A DNA stretch of 64,000 nt from an uncultured Candidatus Saccharibacteria bacterium (GTDB taxonomy: Bacteria > Patescibacteriota > Minisyncoccia > Phycocordibacterales > UBA2100), in NCBI GenBank assembly GCA_964434285.1, contig CAYSUJ010000004.1:18732-82731 (forward strand). The letters are read 5' to 3'. The stretch's first letter is position 1. Each line of letters opens with the position of its first letter. Positions 1-8,344 of this stretch are shown here, in pieces. Both the position numbers and the translations under genes were made by a program. The notes under the pieces are model-generated. The model was not told where the DNA came from. It did no database searches and saw nothing but the letters and a program-made list of their open reading frames with translations.

Positions 1-1125
1 GCCGCGCACAGCGCGTGCTTTGCGATAATACGCATCCGCGTAGCCAGAAGAGAGCACGAATGTTCCAACCAAAATGCGGCGACGAACCTCGGGACCAAAC
101 CCTGCACCCCGAGTCTTCGCATACACACCGCCAATATCCTCAGCGGGCAGCGAGAGTCCATAGCGAATACCATCGTAGCGCGCGAGGTTCGTGGAGACTT
201 CTGCCGGGTTCACTATGTAGTAGACCGCGAGCGCGTGTGCAAGCGTTGGAAGTGTAATGTCACGAATCTCATACCCCGCCTCCCGCAGTTTTGAGAGTGT
301 TTGTTCAAACGCGGTCAAAACTTCTGGATCCACACCCTTTTCAAGCACCGAGCGTGGAACGCCGATGACTTTTTTGAGAGGTCGTCTAGGATACATATCT
401 TCTCCGACCGAGGTGCTGTCGCGCTCATCGCGTCCACGGATCGCTTTAAAGAGTGCCTGCGCATCGGCGACCGTTTTACCCATTGATCCGATTTGATCGA
501 GTGAAGATGCGGCGGCCATGAGGCCGTAGCGAGAAACGGAGCCATACGTCGTCTTGAGTCCGGCGATACCGCAGAATGAGGCTGGCTGGCGAATCGAACC
601 TCCAGTGTCGGAACCCAGTGCTGCGAGAGCGAGACCCCCCGCAACGGCAGCGGCAGAGCCTCCCGAGGTCCCCCCGGGCACACGCGATACATCCAGCGGG
701 TTTTTACTCGGTCCGAACGCAGAGTTCTCCGTGGAGCCGCCAAGGGCGAACTCATCCATATTGGTGCGCCCGAGGAAAACGGCACCCTCCCCTTTCAGCT
801 TCTCTATAACAGTTGCATCGTAGGATGCGCGGTAGTGTTCGAGCATTTTTGATGCTGAGCTCGCAATGCGGCCCTCGATGAGAATGTTGTCTTTGACGGC
901 GAGAGGAATCCCCGTGAAAGTAGAAGCCTCACCCCGCGCGATACGTTCGTCCGCTGCGCGTGCTTCAACGCGCGCAGCATCTTCCCACACTTCAAGATAT
1001 GCATGTATTTCTGTGTCCTTCGACGTAATCGCTTCGAGGTAGGCATTCGTCAGTTCAAGCGCAGAAAACTCTTTCGCATCGAGTGCGCGTCGTGCTTCCG
1101 CAATGCTGAGGCGTGAAATGTCCAT
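1..1125 (-). CDS. gatA: Glu-tRNA(Gln)/Asp-tRNA(Asn) amidotransferase subunit A, 3'-truncated by the window edge
   Basis: My translation of the reverse complement from the ATG at 1123-1125 gives MDISRLSIAEARRALDAKEF...GGSSGG...QPASFCGIAGLKTTYG, the amidase signature. There is no stop before position 1. The gene is not in the ORF track because it runs off the window. Confidence 0.85.
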   Translation of the reverse strand, partial: MDISRLSIAEARRALDAKEFSALELTNAYLEAITSKDTEIHAYLEVWEDAARVEARAADERIARGEASTFTGIPLAVKDNILIEGRIASSASKMLEHYRASYDATVIEKLKGEGAVFLGRTNMDEFALGGSTENSAFGPSKNPLDVSRVPGGTSGGSAAAVAGGLALAALGSDTGGSIRQPASFCGIAGLKTTYGSVSRYGLMAAASSLDQIGSMGKTVADAQALFKAIRGRDERDSTSVGEDMYPRRPLKKVIGVPRSVLEKGVDPEVLTAFEQTLSKLREAGYEIRDITLPTLAHALAVYYIVNPAEVSTNLARYDGIRYGLSLPAEDIGGVYAKTRGAGFGPEVRRRILVGTFVLSSGYADAYYRKARAVRG

Positions 1126-1126
1126 A

Positions 1127-1414
1127 CTATTTGTGGAGCACCTTCTTAACGAGAAGATAGCCGTCTTCCGTAGCCGGTGCTGCGTCAAGTAACGTCTTTG
1201 TATAGAGGCCTGATTCGTGGGGGTTTTCGTCATTACGCATCACATTACGCACCGGAGGAGTCTCGGGCGTCACTTCACCCGCAACCGACTGAATCGTCTC
1301 CACAAAAGCAAGAATGGCGGGAATTTCCTTCTCAAGCTGCTGGAGCTCTTCGGGAGAAACTTCAAGCCGCGCCAACTTCGCAAGAGCGACAACGTCAATT
1401 TGTGTCTGTGTCAT
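1127..1414 (-). CDS. gatC: aspartyl/glutamyl-tRNA amidotransferase subunit C
   Basis: The 95-aa ORF ends ...GYLLVKKVLHK, which resembles GatC, and lies directly upstream of gatA. Its ATG overlaps the reverse transcriptase stop in an ATGA arrangement. Confidence 0.8.
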   Translation of the reverse strand: MTQTQIDVVALAKLARLEVSPEELQQLEKEIPAILAFVETIQSVAGEVTPETPPVRNVMRNDENPHESGLYTKTLLDAAPATEDGYLLVKKVLHK

Positions 1415-2418
1415 TGGAGCATCCTAACAGATTCTCCCTGCGGTAGCATCTGTCGAAGTTTATATGCATTTCCGTGGCTCAAAAGTCCTCGATATGACTG
1501 TACGGTGGGATCGTCATGTTCTCGCCCGGCACACTGTTTCAACATTCGCCGCTTCGTCGTCGTGCGCAGCACGCGATAATCAGGAAAATGTACCCATCCA
1601 AGGAAATCGATACCGGACGCGAGCGTGCGGATTGAAATTTTGTTCGGATTCAGTTCGAGCTTGAGACGATCGCGTAGGAAATCTCGCATATTCGCGAATA
1701 TGCACACCAACGCCCTTCGATCACGCGAGAGAATAACGAAGTCATCAGCATAACGGATGTAGTATTTCGCTTTGAGTGCGTGCTTCACAAATTGATCAAA
1801 CTCGTTCATGTAGATGTTCACGAGGAGTTGTGAGGCAAGGTTCCCAAGCGGCAATCCCTTTCCCCGTGCTCCTGAATTGAAACTTACAATGACGCGTCTT
1901 ATGAGATCGACAATCCGCACATCTTCAATTCGATGCGTAAGAATGTTCGAAAGTATTGCCTGGTCAATACTCGCGAAAAACTTCCAAACGTCGCATTTGA
2001 GAACCCAACAGGTGCGCGTATGGTTGCGGGAGACTTTGTACGCACACGCGCGAAATCGATTCACCGCTCGATGTGTCCCCTTTCCTTTCCGGCATGAGTA
2101 CGAATCTGCAATGAACGTACGGTCAAAGAATGGATAGAGTTTGCGATACAGCGCATGATGTAGCAGTCGGTCGCGTACGGTGGCTTTGTGAATGTTCCTC
2201 GGTTTTGGATCAGAAATATTAAATGCGTGGTACGGACCATGCACATACGTGCACGCTACAAGATCACGATGCAGTGCAGGAATGTTCTCCATCAATCGAT
2301 ACTGAAACTCCTGCACATCCCTCTTTTTACGCTTCCCGCGTACGAATTCTTTCCACGCTTGCAGCAGGTTCTCGATGGAGATGATATCCTCGTAGGTATG
2401 GGTGAAAACAATGACCAC
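1411..2418 (-). CDS. DGR reverse transcriptase. The listed ORF runs to 2754, but its N-terminal ~110 aa look like non-coding antisense sequence, and the likely start is the GTG at about 2418.
   Basis: Motifs present: YIRYADDFVIL (YADD), LPLGNLASQLLVNIYMNEFD (the GNLxSQ motif typical of DGR reverse transcriptases) and SYSCRKGKGTHRA. An AGGGGG ribosome-binding site sits ahead of the in-frame GTG. Confidence 0.8.
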   Translation of the reverse strand: MVIVFTHTYEDIISIENLLQAWKEFVRGKRKKRDVQEFQYRLMENIPALHRDLVACTYVHGPYHAFNISDPKPRNIHKATVRDRLLHHALYRKLYPFFDRTFIADSYSCRKGKGTHRAVNRFRACAYKVSRNHTRTCWVLKCDVWKFFASIDQAILSNILTHRIEDVRIVDLIRRVIVSFNSGARGKGLPLGNLASQLLVNIYMNEFDQFVKHALKAKYYIRYADDFVILSRDRRALVCIFANMRDFLRDRLKLELNPNKISIRTLASGIDFLGWVHFPDYRVLRTTTKRRMLKQCAGREHDDPTVQSYRGLLSHGNAYKLRQMLPQGESVRMLQ

Positions 2419-2443
2419 ACATTGAAGTCTGCCCCCTGATTTT

Positions 2444-2803
2444 TTGCAACCGAAGCTTGTGCCTGTCGTATCCAAACTCAAGGATGCATATCTCATTTGG
2501 CAAAGATTTTTGCCGCATGTTGATAAGGCGCGACGGCAGACACTAGCACAACGTATAGATTCAGAATTGCTCGAAACGCTTGAACATTCGTTTCGTGCAG
2601 GATATGTGCGGGATGAACGAAAAATCTCTGCTCTTGAAACAGCGATCGGACGACTCGACCTCGCTAAATTTTTCCTTCTCATTGCATGGGAGATGTCGAT
2701 GCTCACCGACGCACAGTACCGGCATATTTCAGAACATCTTATTGAAGCGAGCAAAATGCTTTCCGGATGGAAGAGCTACATGGAAAAGAAAACTCTCCCG
2801 TGA
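2444..2803 (+). CDS. Avd-like (accessory variability determinant / four-helix-bundle, IVS-like) protein candidate
   Basis: 119-aa helical ORF. The segment ...ISALETAIGRLDLAKFFLLIAWEMSMLTDAQYRHISEHLIEASKMLSGWK resembles the C-terminal helices of Bordetella phage Avd (...LGSWI). There is no in-frame ATG near the start, so it would begin at TTG or GTG. It lies on the strand opposite the TR and the reverse transcriptase. Confidence 0.4.
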   Translation: MQPKLVPVVSKLKDAYLIWQRFLPHVDKARRQTLAQRIDSELLETLEHSFRAGYVRDERKISALETAIGRLDLAKFFLLIAWEMSMLTDAQYRHISEHLIEASKMLSGWKSYMEKKTLP

Positions 2804-2816
2804 GGGAGAGAAAGGT

Positions 2817-2929
2817 GAGTTGCGGAGGAGGAGCCGATTGTCGGCGTTCCACCGATTGTCGTTGTCGAGCCTGTTGACGTAGGCGTTCCACCTGCGGTCG
2901 TTCCGATTGAAGTTGAGAACCGAGACGCT
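2817..2929 (-). repeat. DGR template repeat (TR)
   Basis: 113 bp. Read on the minus strand it encodes VLNFNRNDRRWNAYVNRLDNDNRWNADNRLLLRNS, with ten AAC/AAT codons. Its adenines are the positions that differ from the VR. Confidence 0.8.
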
Positions 2930-3160
2930 ATGTACTCTGTGCCATCCGTGCCACCGCCTTTTGAATACTCTCAAGGTTGAATCTGATGCGAAGTCGTTAA
3001 CTCCCTAATGCAGAGCACCAACTCTCTTCTTTTTTGAAGAAGTGCGAACCTCGCCATCTCAAGCCTAAAAAGAAAGACCGTAGATGCCAGCGTGTTCAAC
3101 ATAACGATACCCCGCATCTCCACTCAAGGAAATGCGGGGTACAGGACAAGTAACAAAGGG

Positions 3161-3861
3161 TCAGAGGGTCACAGTGTCCGAGTTACGGAGGAGGAGCCGA
3201 GCGTCGGCGTCCCACCGACGGTCGCGGCCGAGCCTGCCGACGTAGGCGCTCCACCCGCGGTCGCCCCGAACGAAGCCGAGAACCGAGACGCTGCCATTCA
3301 CATCCTCAACGAATGCGAAGTTGGCATAGCCGTCAGTACGCAAGCCGACTTCTTCACCCGATTCCTACCGCTCGACGAGCGCTTCGGCTTCCGAGAGTGC
3401 GAGCGTGAGCCCGCGCCCCCGCAGTCGTGCAACAATCTCATCGTCAGCTGTACCGGGCACAGCCTGTACGGCCGCGAGCGCCATCTCCCGGAAGGTCGTG
3501 CTTCCGGATTCTGGAGCTGGTAGATCCCGACCGATTCGGTCGCGTTCGCGGTCTGCTGAGCGAGAAGCCAGCGATCGATGTCGGGATGGCGATATCCCCA
3601 AAGCGTGCCAGTGAAGCAATCCCGGGTTTTCTTGGGCTTTGCGCCGGTGAAGATCGCCTTTTTGTGGAAGACGAGAGTCGGACGCATTCGCTTTTCAGCG
3701 GACACCGAAAGTGCCTCTCGCAACGCTGTGGCCAGGGCTTTTCCATTGTTCGCCCAATGCAGGGCGACGTCAGGCTCGATATCGCGCGGCAACGCCTTTA
3801 TTACGGCGCCGGCGAATTCGGAAAACTGCCCAACGGACAAGGCTGTTCCATGTTTAGACAT
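3161..3861 (-). pseudogene. DGR target (variable) protein gene, apparently frame-disrupted
   Basis: From the ATG at 3861 (ribosome-binding site GAAAGGAA), a well-behaved frame reads MSKHGTALSVGQFSEFAGAVIKALPRD... but decays after about aa 110. A second frame becomes protein-like (...REMALAAVQAVPGTADDEIVARLRGRGLTLALSEAEALVER) and is separated by one in-frame TAG at 3365-3367 from the VR-containing C-terminal frame, which ends at 3161. Confidence 0.5.
3180..3292 (-). repeat. DGR variable repeat (VR)
   Basis: Aligns to the TR with 19 mismatches in 113 bp. Eighteen of these are at TR-adenine positions (minus strand) and one is a synonymous C/T. It encodes VLGFVRGDRGWSAYVGRLGRDRRWDADARLLLRNS. Confidence 0.8.
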
Positions 3862-3924
3862 GGCTGTTCCTTTCAAGGTTCACTTCCCAGCCTGATGCCG
3901 GAGAAGGGCACTATTATATAACGT

Positions 3925-5940
<2,016 letters not shown>

Positions 5941-5968
5941 TTATCGCACGGAGGCTGCCTACACCACC

Positions 5969-6445
5969 CTAGTAGGAGAGTTCGACGGAGCGCTGGAGAG
6001 CCCGGTTCGACACATCAATTTCGGAGCAGGCCGTCGAAAAACCATCGGCCTCAATGACTGTAGATCCATTAATCGTGTCTTTTTCAACAGCCACACGTGC
6101 ACATAAACCATTTGGCTCATACTCAAAGGACATGGTATAGACGGGTTGCCCTGGCGGCGGCGTTGCTGGCGTGATTGAAAGTGCGTCGCCATCACACGTC
6201 GGAGTCCCCCCTGGCGAGGTCGAGCTAAAGTACCCAAAACGCATATCCCAGTACAGCGCACATTCCGCTGCAGAATCGGCAACATAAAACGCGTACTGTG
6301 AACTACGCCCGAGCGACGAGAGAATAATCTGTTTTTGAGCAATGGAGAATACTGATATACCAAGCGCGAGCACGAGGGATGCAACGAGTGCAGCGAGCAG
6401 AATGGTAAATCCGCGGTTACTCTGTTCCCGTAGAGAATGGCTCAT
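5969..6445 (-). CDS. pseudopilin-like protein (N-terminal hydrophobic pilin-type helix)
   Basis: N-terminus NRGFTILLAALVASLVLALGISVF. Overlaps the next pilin-like gene by 4 bp. Confidence 0.45.
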   Translation of the reverse strand: MSHSLREQSNRGFTILLAALVASLVLALGISVFSIAQKQIILSSLGRSSQYAFYVADSAAECALYWDMRFGYFSSTSPGGTPTCDGDALSITPATPPPGQPVYTMSFEYEPNGLCARVAVEKDTINGSTVIEADGFSTACSEIDVSNRALQRSVELSY

Positions 6446-7065
6446 ACATTGTCATCGACCCATCGATAGAGATTTTCATAAATCGTGATTGTCCGTGGCT
6501 GCGACGTTCCTGCGTCCCACGAAATTGTAACCTCGATACGAATTTCATCTTGCGTGCCAGGAACGTAGGCAACATTCACGGTGCGACGATATGGCGAGTC
6601 ATCCCACCCGGCTTCATATCCGTACAATTCGCCATTTGTCTGGAGTAGCGGACACTGACCCGAGCACGTGGTAATCACGTTATTCCGAGTATCGATAACA
6701 AATGGTGTGCCAATCGGAATCCCGCACAGCAGTGTAACGGGAGAGCAACTTGCGTCCGGACTACTGAGCGATATGCGCAGAACATTACCATCACGAATCG
6801 CCCGAACCGTCTCTATTGCTTCTTGTGCTAGATTAAATGCGATTACCTGATCGCGCGCATAGTATGACGCAGAGAGTGATTGCATGGTGAGCGACATAGG
6901 CGCCACAATGGCAACAGTCAGAATAACGATGGCAACCATTGTCTCGATGAGGGTCATTCCATGAGTAGCTTTCAGCTGTGGGCTGCCAGCTTTCAGGAAA
7001 TATAAAAAGAAACCCCTGATCGCATCCTGGAAGGTGGAAGCTGGACACTGGGAGCTATTTTTCAT
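6442..7065 (-). CDS. type IV pilin-like / pseudopilin
   Basis: Prepilin motif G|MTLIETMVAIVILTVAIV. Confidence 0.55.
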   Translation of the reverse strand: MKNSSQCPASTFQDAIRGFFLYFLKAGSPQLKATHGMTLIETMVAIVILTVAIVAPMSLTMQSLSASYYARDQVIAFNLAQEAIETVRAIRDGNVLRISLSSPDASCSPVTLLCGIPIGTPFVIDTRNNVITTCSGQCPLLQTNGELYGYEAGWDDSPYRRTVNVAYVPGTQDEIRIEVTISWDAGTSQPRTITIYENLYRWVDDNV

Positions 7066-7748
7066 ATATCAAGTATGCGCTGAACCGCCGTCGCCTGAAT
7101 GTAAAAAGATGTTTGATGCCGCACCTCCTCCCCTCCCGCAACCCCCTTAATCACGATCACCACCTTGGGCTGCGTTGTATCCTGAGGCGTTGAGCCGACC
7201 ACGTACATCTGCATTTCTGTGATTTCCACTTCCGGCGCCGTCACCGGCAACGACGTCGCACCCCCATTCTGAGAACGATACAGTCGTGATCGGCCCTGCG
7301 CATCGTTTGCTATGCTGTAGACTGTGCGTTCAGTTTGCGCATTTGGGTTCGACCCGTGCGGCGCGAATGAAAACATGGCGGGCACCGACGTGACTGGTGA
7401 AATACCCTGCGGACAATCACCCCACGTTGGCGCCTGCGGTATGGAACTTCCTCCACAGCGGTAGTGTGATCCCATGCGTATGGCGCGCACCATGCTGTCC
7501 AGTGAGATATTGAGATTATTCATCACACTCTCGAGCGTCCGTGCCTTCCGGTTTGCATCCACCAGCGAAAGCAGCGCACCTACCGAAACGAGCATGATAA
7601 CCGCGAACAGCGATATAGAAACCACCATCTCAACGAGCGTGAAGCCGCGAGAACAAGCTGACCGTTGACCGTTGGCAATTGGCAGAAAACCGAAAAGACA
7701 TTCTTTGCATTTTTGTAAACGATGGATTGTTAGCTGTAGATTGTTCAT
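7062..7748 (-). CDS. type IV pilin-like / pseudopilin
   Basis: Prepilin motif SRG|FTLVEMVVSISLFAVIML. Confidence 0.55.
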   Translation of the reverse strand: MNNLQLTIHRLQKCKECLFGFLPIANGQRSACSRGFTLVEMVVSISLFAVIMLVSVGALLSLVDANRKARTLESVMNNLNISLDSMVRAIRMGSHYRCGGSSIPQAPTWGDCPQGISPVTSVPAMFSFAPHGSNPNAQTERTVYSIANDAQGRSRLYRSQNGGATSLPVTAPEVEITEMQMYVVGSTPQDTTQPKVVIVIKGVAGGEEVRHQTSFYIQATAVQRILDI

Positions 7749-7750
7749 AC

Positions 7751-8344
7751 CTACTGCACCGATATCTGTCCCGATGCCTCAACAACTACTTCAGCGCGCG
7801 TACCTCGCGGAGACTCAATTATAATGCGTGCACGATCATCGGTAATCGGCCCCGCCGTGCGACGAATGAGCGCATCCGGCTCTGGACGATAAAACAAAAT
7901 GTTAAGTGAGGGGAGGCCGCACGTTTCTATGGACGTCGAAGCATTGCGTGCGCACACGTCCACCACACGATATCCGGCCGCAAGCGTCATGGTTCGAACC
8001 GACTCGCCCGGATCGTAAATCCCGTTTGCAATGCTGTCACCATAGAGTTGATATACTGTTTGAGTATCTTGCGCTGAAGGAGCGAAGTACATGCCATATC
8101 CCACGTCGAAATTTGTTCCACTGAATCGGCGCACTGCAATGCCATACACCTGTGCTTCACGAACAGTGAGCGCCATCTCATGTGCAAGATTTTGAAGTAC
8201 GACACGGTTTCCAAACTGCGTATTCGCCGAAAGTACAATCGCCGAGAGCACCATGAATATCCCCGACACGACCAAGAGTTCAATCAATGTAAAAGCCCTA
8301 GAAACGTGAGGAGCGGTGTGTAGGCGTAAAAGAGTGCGAACCAT
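7751..8344 (-). CDS. type IV pilin-like / pseudopilin (GspH/FimT-like)
   Basis: Prepilin motif RA|FTLIELLVVSGIFMVL. Confidence 0.55.
   Translation of the reverse strand: MVRTLLRLHTAPHVSRAFTLIELLVVSGIFMVLSAIVLSANTQFGNRVVLQNLAHEMALTVREAQVYGIAVRRFSGTNFDVGYGMYFAPSAQDTQTVYQLYGDSIANGIYDPGESVRTMTLAAGYRVVDVCARNASTSIETCGLPSLNILFYRPEPDALIRRTAGPITDDRARIIIESPRGTRAEVVVEASGQISVQ

Follow-up and report, generated by a model that had tools for sequence, protein, structure and literature searches.

Between the template repeat (TR) and the reverse transcriptase (RT) of a retroelement cassette in a 64,000-nt stretch of DNA from an uncultured Candidatus Saccharibacteria bacterium (contig CAYSUJ010000004.1; the whole stretch is called the window here), a small open reading frame (ORF) lies on the strand opposite to both. 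The locus raises the question whether this ORF is a real accessory gene of a diversity-generating retroelement (DGR) and, if so, how a template RNA is made with such a gene lying antisense behind the TR. Judged from its sequence and its modelled fold, the ORF is a genuine Avd (accessory variability determinant) gene of a DGR. The best explanation, which we consider very probable, is that it encodes the Avd of a chromosomal DGR of the architecture called B3, of the type of the Candidate Phyla Radiation (CPR; Patescibacteria, Kaiserbacteria-like), and that the template RNA forms a separate unit on the minus strand. The coordinates of all features are collected in Table 1.

On sequence grounds the cassette is a DGR. 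Positions 1-8000 contained only one long repeat pair, with an offset of 363 nt between the copies. Read directly over 114 nt of the minus strand, the copies differed at 19 adenines of the first one and at one C-to-T change, and in the BLAST alignment of 113 nt adenines accounted for 18 of 19 mismatches. Since the first copy carries A at the 19 differing positions, it was assigned as TR and the second as the variable repeat (VR). The same adenine bias was found in most related loci. Where GC-rich initiation of mutagenic homing sequences (IMH/IMH*) would be sought, at the 3′ ends of VR and TR, GGCTCCTCCTCCG is followed by one C/T difference, which makes it a putative element of this kind. The best PDB sequence match of the RT was the Bordetella phage enzyme bRT (8ub7_A, E=4.8e-47); group II RTs reached about 1e-20. 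The RT contained the motifs YADD and LGNLASQ, and the latter fits the DGR signature [LIV]GxxxSQ. There was no second avd, RT or VR within the window. Since the RT N-terminus begins at 2418 (see below), the gap between TR and RT is 397 nt and is occupied by avd on the other strand, in agreement with the initial annotation, which had placed an antisense avd inside a gap of about 400 nt.

The ORF had been picked out as Avd-like, or similar to the proteins of intervening sequences (IVS) in 23S rRNA genes, by its helical pattern and a C-terminal LSGW motif, and the searches with its 119-aa product bore this out. NCBIfam NF033474 (DivGenRetAVD) matched with E=4e-12 (46.4 bits, model positions 2-103 of 104) and Pfam PF22296 (bAvd) with E=3.4e-6 (27.9 bits, model positions 18-106 of 107); the bAvd profile was matched by 17 of 18 members of the avd family. 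The LSGW motif was present within ...KMLSGWKSY, and the residues E101, A102, S103, K104, M105, L106, G108 and W109 of the block E-A-S-K-M-L-x-G-W were invariant in 18 Avd relatives. The AlphaFold model built on these 18 relatives showed four helices (residues 5-25, 28-52, 57-83 and 89-117) at a predicted local distance difference test (pLDDT) score of 90.8. Its best PDB neighbours by Foldseek were the IVS-family proteins 2rld and 2gsc and the bAvd structures 4dwl (free Bordetella phage Avd) and 8ub7 (RT-Avd-RNA particle), at template modelling (TM) scores of 0.77-0.88, and it superposed on the Avd chains of 4dwl and 8ub7 with a root-mean-square deviation of 1.6-2.3 Å. The product is basic, with an isoelectric point (pI) of 9.4, and the relatives mostly have pI 9.2-9.6. 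More than 280 Avd relatives were found, and all named ones come from CPR bacteria. Proteins of the Avd kind are basic four-helix bundles; the one of the Bordetella phage assembles as a pentamer, binds both the RT and the template RNA, and is required for adenine-mutagenic cDNA synthesis.

The same fold leaves room for a generic bundle protein of the 23S rRNA IVS type that stands beside the RT and has no role in a DGR. The top Foldseek matches 2rld and 2gsc, IVS-family proteins with no assigned function, would fit such a protein, and so would a weak match to Pfam 23S_rRNA_IVP (PF05635; E=0.033, 14.9 bits versus a cut-off of 33.8). We regard it as highly improbable, because the best profile is the DGR-specific Avd model, avd keeps its place between TR and RT in all related loci, the last avd codons are interlocked with a hairpin that follows the TR, and no Rfam family, hence no rRNA, was found at E<=1 within positions 1-8000.

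Which strand codes in this region was the second question, as the minus-strand ORF that carries the RVT_1 domain is open over 1411-2754. This open frame would suit a reading in which coding across 2419-2754 is on the minus strand, with an RT start near 2754, and the ORF on the plus strand is spurious; the evidence makes that reading next to impossible. Among 42 distinct avd genes the synonymous sites were close to gene-wide codon freedom (median entropy ratio 0.91) under conserved amino acids, and the conserved plus-frame product folds confidently and matches Avd. The RT of the relatives starts from a conserved ATG (M-A/G/S-R...THTYEDII), at a distance of about 33-35 nt from avd, and in-frame stops lie 3-260 codons upstream of it, at varying positions and within 3-6 codons in six loci, so that the antisense frame is interrupted in most relatives. 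The wobble positions of the 112-codon antisense extension coincide with those of avd (2446 and 2752 both equal 1 mod 3), and because of this shared register such a frame easily stays open. In the window the RT ATG was lost and the in-frame GTG 2418 stands in its place; the N-terminus read from it is VVIVFTHTYEDII, and exactly this 335-aa product is on the NCBI record, as is the 114-aa Avd that starts from the alternative GTG 2459. It is the plus strand that codes across 2444-2803, and the RT extension to 2754 is spurious. The initial annotation had come to the same view, and the RT start near 2754 that it had kept as the opposite outcome gave way to GTG 2418.

It had also called the orientation of avd relative to the RT unusual, and this we could not uphold. 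We collected 74 related loci (18 from species-representative genomes, 47 metagenomic, the others reached through exact look-ups of related proteins), and surveyed the layout in the first 70 of them together with the window. An RT match was found in 56 surveyed loci, and 54 of these had the RT on the strand opposite to avd and directly upstream of it; the remaining two were truncated or rearranged, and all 54 intact RT-avd junctions were divergent. The TR of the related loci ends 0-36 nt beyond the avd stop codon, convergent with avd, and the VR follows about 360-450 nt further on. Named hosts of the relatives were Kaiser-, Adler-, Yanofsky- and Zambryskii-bacteria and Paceibacterota, and several records were labelled "uncultured Candidatus Saccharibacteria". 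The architecture TR-(avd)-RT, in which parentheses denote the reverse strand, is called B3, and Wu et al. 2018 (Nucleic Acids Res 46:11, PMC5758913) reported that 90% of CPR DGRs have it, in a CPR set drawn from Paul et al. 2017 (PMC5758913). The window has exactly this arrangement, without another accessory gene. Because B3 was already published for CPR DGRs, the orientation is not new: a reverse-strand avd between TR and RT is a known CPR arrangement, unusual only beside the Bordetella prototype. The orientation itself is one more example of a documented cassette type and changes nothing.

What such a layout means for the template RNA can be read from the DNA around the TR. Directly after the TR follows a GC-rich stem-loop, and the U-run UUUUCUUUUC begins right at its end. 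The stem-loop was present in 18 of 19 folded loci with stems that differ in sequence and length, for example CUCUCCC/GGGAGAG, CUUCCGC/GCGGAAG and CCCGGCACAUUC/GAAUGUGCCGGG; four of five aligned pairs showed compensatory change, and 99% of the cells were paired. U.G pairs occurred in 13 and 18 of 40 loci, and since these would be A.C mismatches on the plus strand, the hairpin acts in a minus-strand RNA. The U-run is the antisense of four avd codons near the end of the gene, and the choice of these codons was nearly fixed (GAA in 40/40, AAG in 37/37, AAA in 40/41 and ACT in 35/40), compared with a gene-wide avd usage of 182:139 for GAA:GAG and 321:160 for AAA:AAG. This synonymous freezing was limited to the U-run codons E-K-K-T, and avd codons 6-113 varied freely. 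A covariation scan of 36 loci, which covered the leader described below, the TR, the hairpin and the avd antisense in full, gave no supported helix involving the avd antisense. From its sequence, the conserved hairpin with its U-run looks like an intrinsic terminator. The initial annotation had supposed that a TR-RT transcript must cross the avd antisense; with a terminator-like element after the TR and the rest of the antisense unconstrained, this point is probably moot.

On the other side of the TR, the 250 nt between VR and TR were conserved in blocks, and the alignment of 40 distinct loci revealed a structured RNA leader of about 170 nt. The leader helices had 97.7% of cells paired versus 30-47% with slid partners, and 24 pairs with compensatory change versus 5-12 in the slid controls; none of 500 column shuffles reached the observed values of pairing and compensation. 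The segment just upstream of the TR pairs with the leader in the long-range helix P2, in which 8 of 12 pairs were compensatory, and the 3′ strand of P2 ends about 3 nt before the TR and so abuts its 5′ edge. The distant loci L022, L023, L073 and L074 keep P2 with fully different sequences (for example GUAUAGCAAAU/AUUUGCUAUAC and GUGGGAAGCGCU/GGGCGCUUCUCAC). G.U pairs place the structured RNA on the minus strand. No Rfam match was found for the leader (E<=1, positions 1-8000). We found no description of this leader, or of the interlock between avd codons, hairpin and U-run, in Wu et al. (PMC5758913) or in the other literature covered by our limited search, and as far as that literature shows these two are the only part of the locus with some novelty.

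The RNA of Bordetella phage BPP-1 is organized in another way. The order of this DGR is mtd-avd-TR-brt, and its RNA depends on 20 nt upstream of the TR and on a downstream spacer of 140 nt (Handa et al., bioRxiv 10.1101/2023.10.23.563531). In the spacer an Avd-binding stem-loop comes first, and the priming adenosine follows; next are a strand that forms the "stop" duplex with the upstream 20 nt, a short stem-loop and unpaired adenosines, and last a single-stranded "thumb ring" and an RT-binding stem (bioRxiv 10.1101/2023.10.23.563531). If the window followed this layout, the template RNA would run past the hairpin and through the avd antisense toward the RT, the hairpin would only bind Avd, and the primer site, stop duplex and RT-binding stem would be antisense to avd. 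The essential BPP-1 spacer, placed 3′ of the TR and opened by an Avd-binding stem-loop, speaks for it, as do the predictions of Handa et al. for CPR DGRs, in which hairpins of the form CUCUCCC...GGGAGAG are listed as putative Avd-binding stem-loops and stop duplexes are predicted to form between sequence upstream of the TR and sequence 50-80 nt downstream (Table S3, bioRxiv 10.1101/2023.10.23.563531). The window offers a candidate as well, GGAUGG upstream of the TR being complementary to CCAUCC in the avd antisense. We consider this layout unlikely, because these two segments were fully paired in only 9/40 loci and their variable positions, which showed no compensation, paired in 47% and 68% of loci, the segment upstream of the TR has its compensated partner in the leader, no covarying helix involves the avd antisense, the synonymous sites of avd codons 6-113 vary freely, and the frozen U-run follows at once after the hairpin. 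The duplex GGAUGG:CCAUCC, whose second strand is the antisense of the Gly-Trp codons, was rejected as a stop duplex for the avd family of the window.

We therefore return to a template RNA that is separate from avd and RT. The cassette, read along the minus strand, comprises the target gene with the VR, the structured leader, the TR, avd on the opposite strand and the RT. avd and RT would be divergently transcribed from a spacer of about 25-40 nt, and because this spacer is too short for two promoters, each promoter would have to sit inside the coding region of the opposite gene; a promoter scan was at chance level (2 found versus 1.9 expected). The TR RNA would be a minus-strand unit of its own, composed of the leader of about 170 nt, the TR and the stem-loop with the U-run overlapping the last avd codons. 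It would probably end at the U-run and not run through the avd antisense, as suggested by the hairpin with its U-run, by codon freezing only there and by the unstructured avd antisense. The RT would then be expressed separately or by read-through, and Avd and RT would act in trans on the TR RNA. For the leader we infer a role in priming or stopping cDNA synthesis.

Several points weigh against this explanation. Both Avd profile scores are under the curated cut-offs (46.4 against 80 bits for NCBIfam, 27.9 against 40 bits for Pfam), and a profile of the 18 Avd relatives searched against PDB sequences gave no match, so that the link from this Avd to bAvd is made by family profiles and fold. Handa et al. 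take this class of hairpin as Avd-binding, with the RNA continuing downstream (bioRxiv 10.1101/2023.10.23.563531). That transcription stops at the hairpin, where the TR RNA has its 5′ end and where the promoters lie are predictions from sequence. The single-sequence fold of 2783-3098(-) was no better than shuffles (z = -0.9) and did not recover P1, a test that is uninformative alone. In this genome, moreover, the target is broken, the RT ATG is lost and the spacer homopolymer is shortened, and by these signs the cassette may no longer be active.

The target gene was located by three-frame translation and by tblastn with the intact targets (196-203 aa) of the related loci L001 and L002. Its N- and C-terminal parts lie in different frames, the shift falling somewhere between about 3480 and 3660. 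At 3365-3367 there is an in-frame TAG, and the VR falls inside a 60-aa ORF (3161-3343). The relatives have intact targets of 183-226 aa with the VR inside them, at the 3′ end of the ORF; in the window the VR is not at the 3′ end of an intact target ORF. A separate Logan assembly record (L071) of the public run SRR14932609 was 100% identical over 5803 nt, the target disruption included. Because the target is disrupted, the RT ATG has become GTG and the spacer has a run of C5 and not C10-13, the element may be decaying. The cassette would then be a relic in which Avd has no current function, a reading that is compatible with the one given above for the family as a whole and to which the identical sequence in a second assembly record adds. 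We think it possible but rather doubtful, since avd, RT (YADD, LGNLASQ), TR, leader and hairpin are all intact and the VR departs from the TR only at adenines plus one site. Related loci also include some with an internal deletion in the RT (L002, 4492-4945; L003; L007), in which about residues 88-253 are gone and a 104-aa remnant was called; they keep avd, TR, leader and VR, with 13/15 mismatches at adenines.

Table 1. Features of the DGR cassette in the window, ordered by position
Feature	Positions	Strand	Basis or remark
DGR reverse transcriptase, 335 aa	1411-2418	-	Start GTG 2418; Pfam RVT_1 E=3.5e-25
Divergent RT-avd spacer	2419-2443		C5 run at 2432-2436; alignment of 40 spacers
avd, DGR accessory variability determinant	2444-2803	+	119 aa from TTG 2444, or 114 aa from GTG 2459
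U-run after the hairpin, antisense of avd codons E114-K115-K116-T117	2783-2792	-	UUUUCUUUUC; almost invariant among 40 loci
Terminator-like stem-loop directly after TR, with the avd stop codon inside it	2793-2814	-	Tool scan
Template repeat (TR)	2816-2929	-	Sole 113-114 nt repeat pair
Conserved structured RNA leader, about 170 nt	2930-3097	-	Alignment of 40 distinct loci, RNAalifold
Leader P3, short helix	2977-2975 / 2958-2956	-	RNAalifold
Leader P2a, small hairpin	3003-3000 / 2994-2991	-	RNAalifold
Leader P2, 12-bp long-range helix	3018-3007 / 2943-2932	-	RNAalifold
Leader invariant AGUUGG	3023-3018	-	Alignment
Leader A-rich run	3036-3026	-	Alignment
Leader P1, long interrupted stem	3097-3077 / 3064-3046	-	RNAalifold
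15-bp hairpin past the target stop codon, 37 nt downstream of VR	3107-3142	-	Scan; position kept in relatives
Target gene, disrupted	3161-3876	-	Three-frame translation and tblastn against intact targets
Variable repeat (VR)	3179-3292	-	Partner of TR

The cassette is wedged between minus-strand housekeeping genes, with gatA and gatC on one side and ligA and type IV pilin-like genes on the other (1-1414, 3925-8344). Among the ORFs of 1-8000, of which only those of the cassette were scanned against Pfam, none was evidently an integrase or phage gene, and for this reason the cassette of the window looks chromosomal. Phage-integrase Pfam domains were found in the related locus L001, about 2.3 kb beyond avd.

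The spacer between the divergent genes carries a homopolymer of C10-13 in the relatives, seen as a G-run 13-14 nt before the RT ATG, versus C5 in the window, and the projected distance between the RT and avd starts was about 33-35 nt in most loci. Gene callers often ran Avd through the C-run, which gives N-termini with PPPP. Codon 2 of avd (CAA, 2447-2449 +) was invariant in 31/31 relatives with Gln there and lies in a conserved GCAAC just past the C-run; this hints at a signal at the nucleotide level at the 5′ end of avd. Within the RT codons E-D-I-I, the sequence ATGATAT was nearly invariant, the Asp wobble position included; the plus strand there (2381-2390) reads TGnTATCCT and resembles an extended -10 box that may be aimed at avd, about 55-70 nt downstream.

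Two further observations concern the region between VR and TR. The hairpin past the target stop codon is followed by a conserved GGGGTATAnTTTTAT, and it could be a terminator of the target gene, a DGR homing hairpin or an overlap with the promoter of the TR RNA. The P3 loop of the leader holds an insertion of about 55 nt (GAGCGACTAATTTTTCTTCACGGTACTCCGTGTTAGAAAAATGAAGTACCC...) in L012, L040, L037 and L046 (alignment A2, columns 275-424) and a different one at the same place in L032; it could be a small inserted hairpin element.

How the separate template RNA might relate to the phage RNA is suggested by the order of the leader elements. After AGUUGG the leader has the P2 strand, a short stem-loop, an A-rich single strand and P3, which is the order of the phage spacer past the primer. 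Because of this equal order we conjecture, tentatively and at somewhat less than an even chance, that the template RNA of CPR DGRs with a reverse-strand avd corresponds to the phage RNA in circularly permuted form. The scaffold would have moved 5′ of the TR, and the Avd-binding-like stem-loop would have stayed 3′ and doubled as a terminator whose U-run is written in the last four avd codons. The relocated scaffold would comprise a primer strand, a stop-duplex strand, a short stem-loop, an A-rich single strand and protein-binding stems. The circular order common to both systems would run, in the CPR version, from the TR-adjacent helix through the TR, the stem-loop, the end of the RNA, AGUUGG, the P2 strand, the P2a stem-loop and the A-rich strand to P3.

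For the primer strand, AGUU of the leader can pair with AACU at the 3′ end of the TR. The two were 78-100% paired, both sides are invariant and show no covariation, and the flanks paired in 33-40% of loci; this primer-like duplex is a conjecture only and the weakest link of the permutation. Three other pairings were rejected. The leader A-run was considered as a partner of the 3′ U-run, but in the three loci checked for it, whose U-runs are altered internally (L015 and L020 among them), the leader had no compensating change. GAGGUUC with GAGUUUU gave mostly wobble pairs between invariant blocks and was not credited, and TTGA/TCAA, which would join the P1 region to the TR interior, conflicts with P1, lies in the codon-variable TR and was taken as chance.

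If the permuted reading is true, it would replace the upstream/downstream stop duplexes of CPR DGRs that were predicted from -40/+100 nt windows, and cDNA priming and stopping would tolerate a permuted RNA topology, with the scaffold at the 5′ side and the terminator in avd. A minimal CPR DGR RNA of about 320 nt could then be defined for reconstitution, and the reverse-strand avd would be explained as compaction, with one hairpin common to two convergent units. These side results offer a concrete testable RNA for CPR DGRs, the largest natural DGR group, which so far was extrapolated from the Bordetella phage, and they could be relevant to DGR mechanism or engineering.

Compared with known systems, the window agrees with the CPR-type B3 DGRs in how TR, avd and RT are ordered and oriented, in a single adjacent target with the VR at its 3′ end and in a CPR/Patescibacteria host, and nothing in the layout is different. 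The 23S rRNA IVS proteins (PF05635; 2rld, 2gsc) share fold and size with the Avd of the window (TM about 0.8), but this Avd has no rRNA context, its sequence is closer to the DGR Avd models and its family is always linked to RT and TR. With BPP-1 it shares a homologous RT (E=4.8e-47), the same Avd fold, a TR and VR that differ at adenines and a stem-loop directly after the TR, and the helix abutting the TR 5′ edge resembles the "cPRT stop" duplex of the phage. BPP-1 has avd upstream on the same strand and its scaffold in the 140-nt spacer 3′ of the TR, whereas the window has avd antisense immediately 3′ of the TR and the conserved structured RNA 5′ of it; the strand that pairs next to the TR comes from upstream in the window and from downstream in BPP-1.

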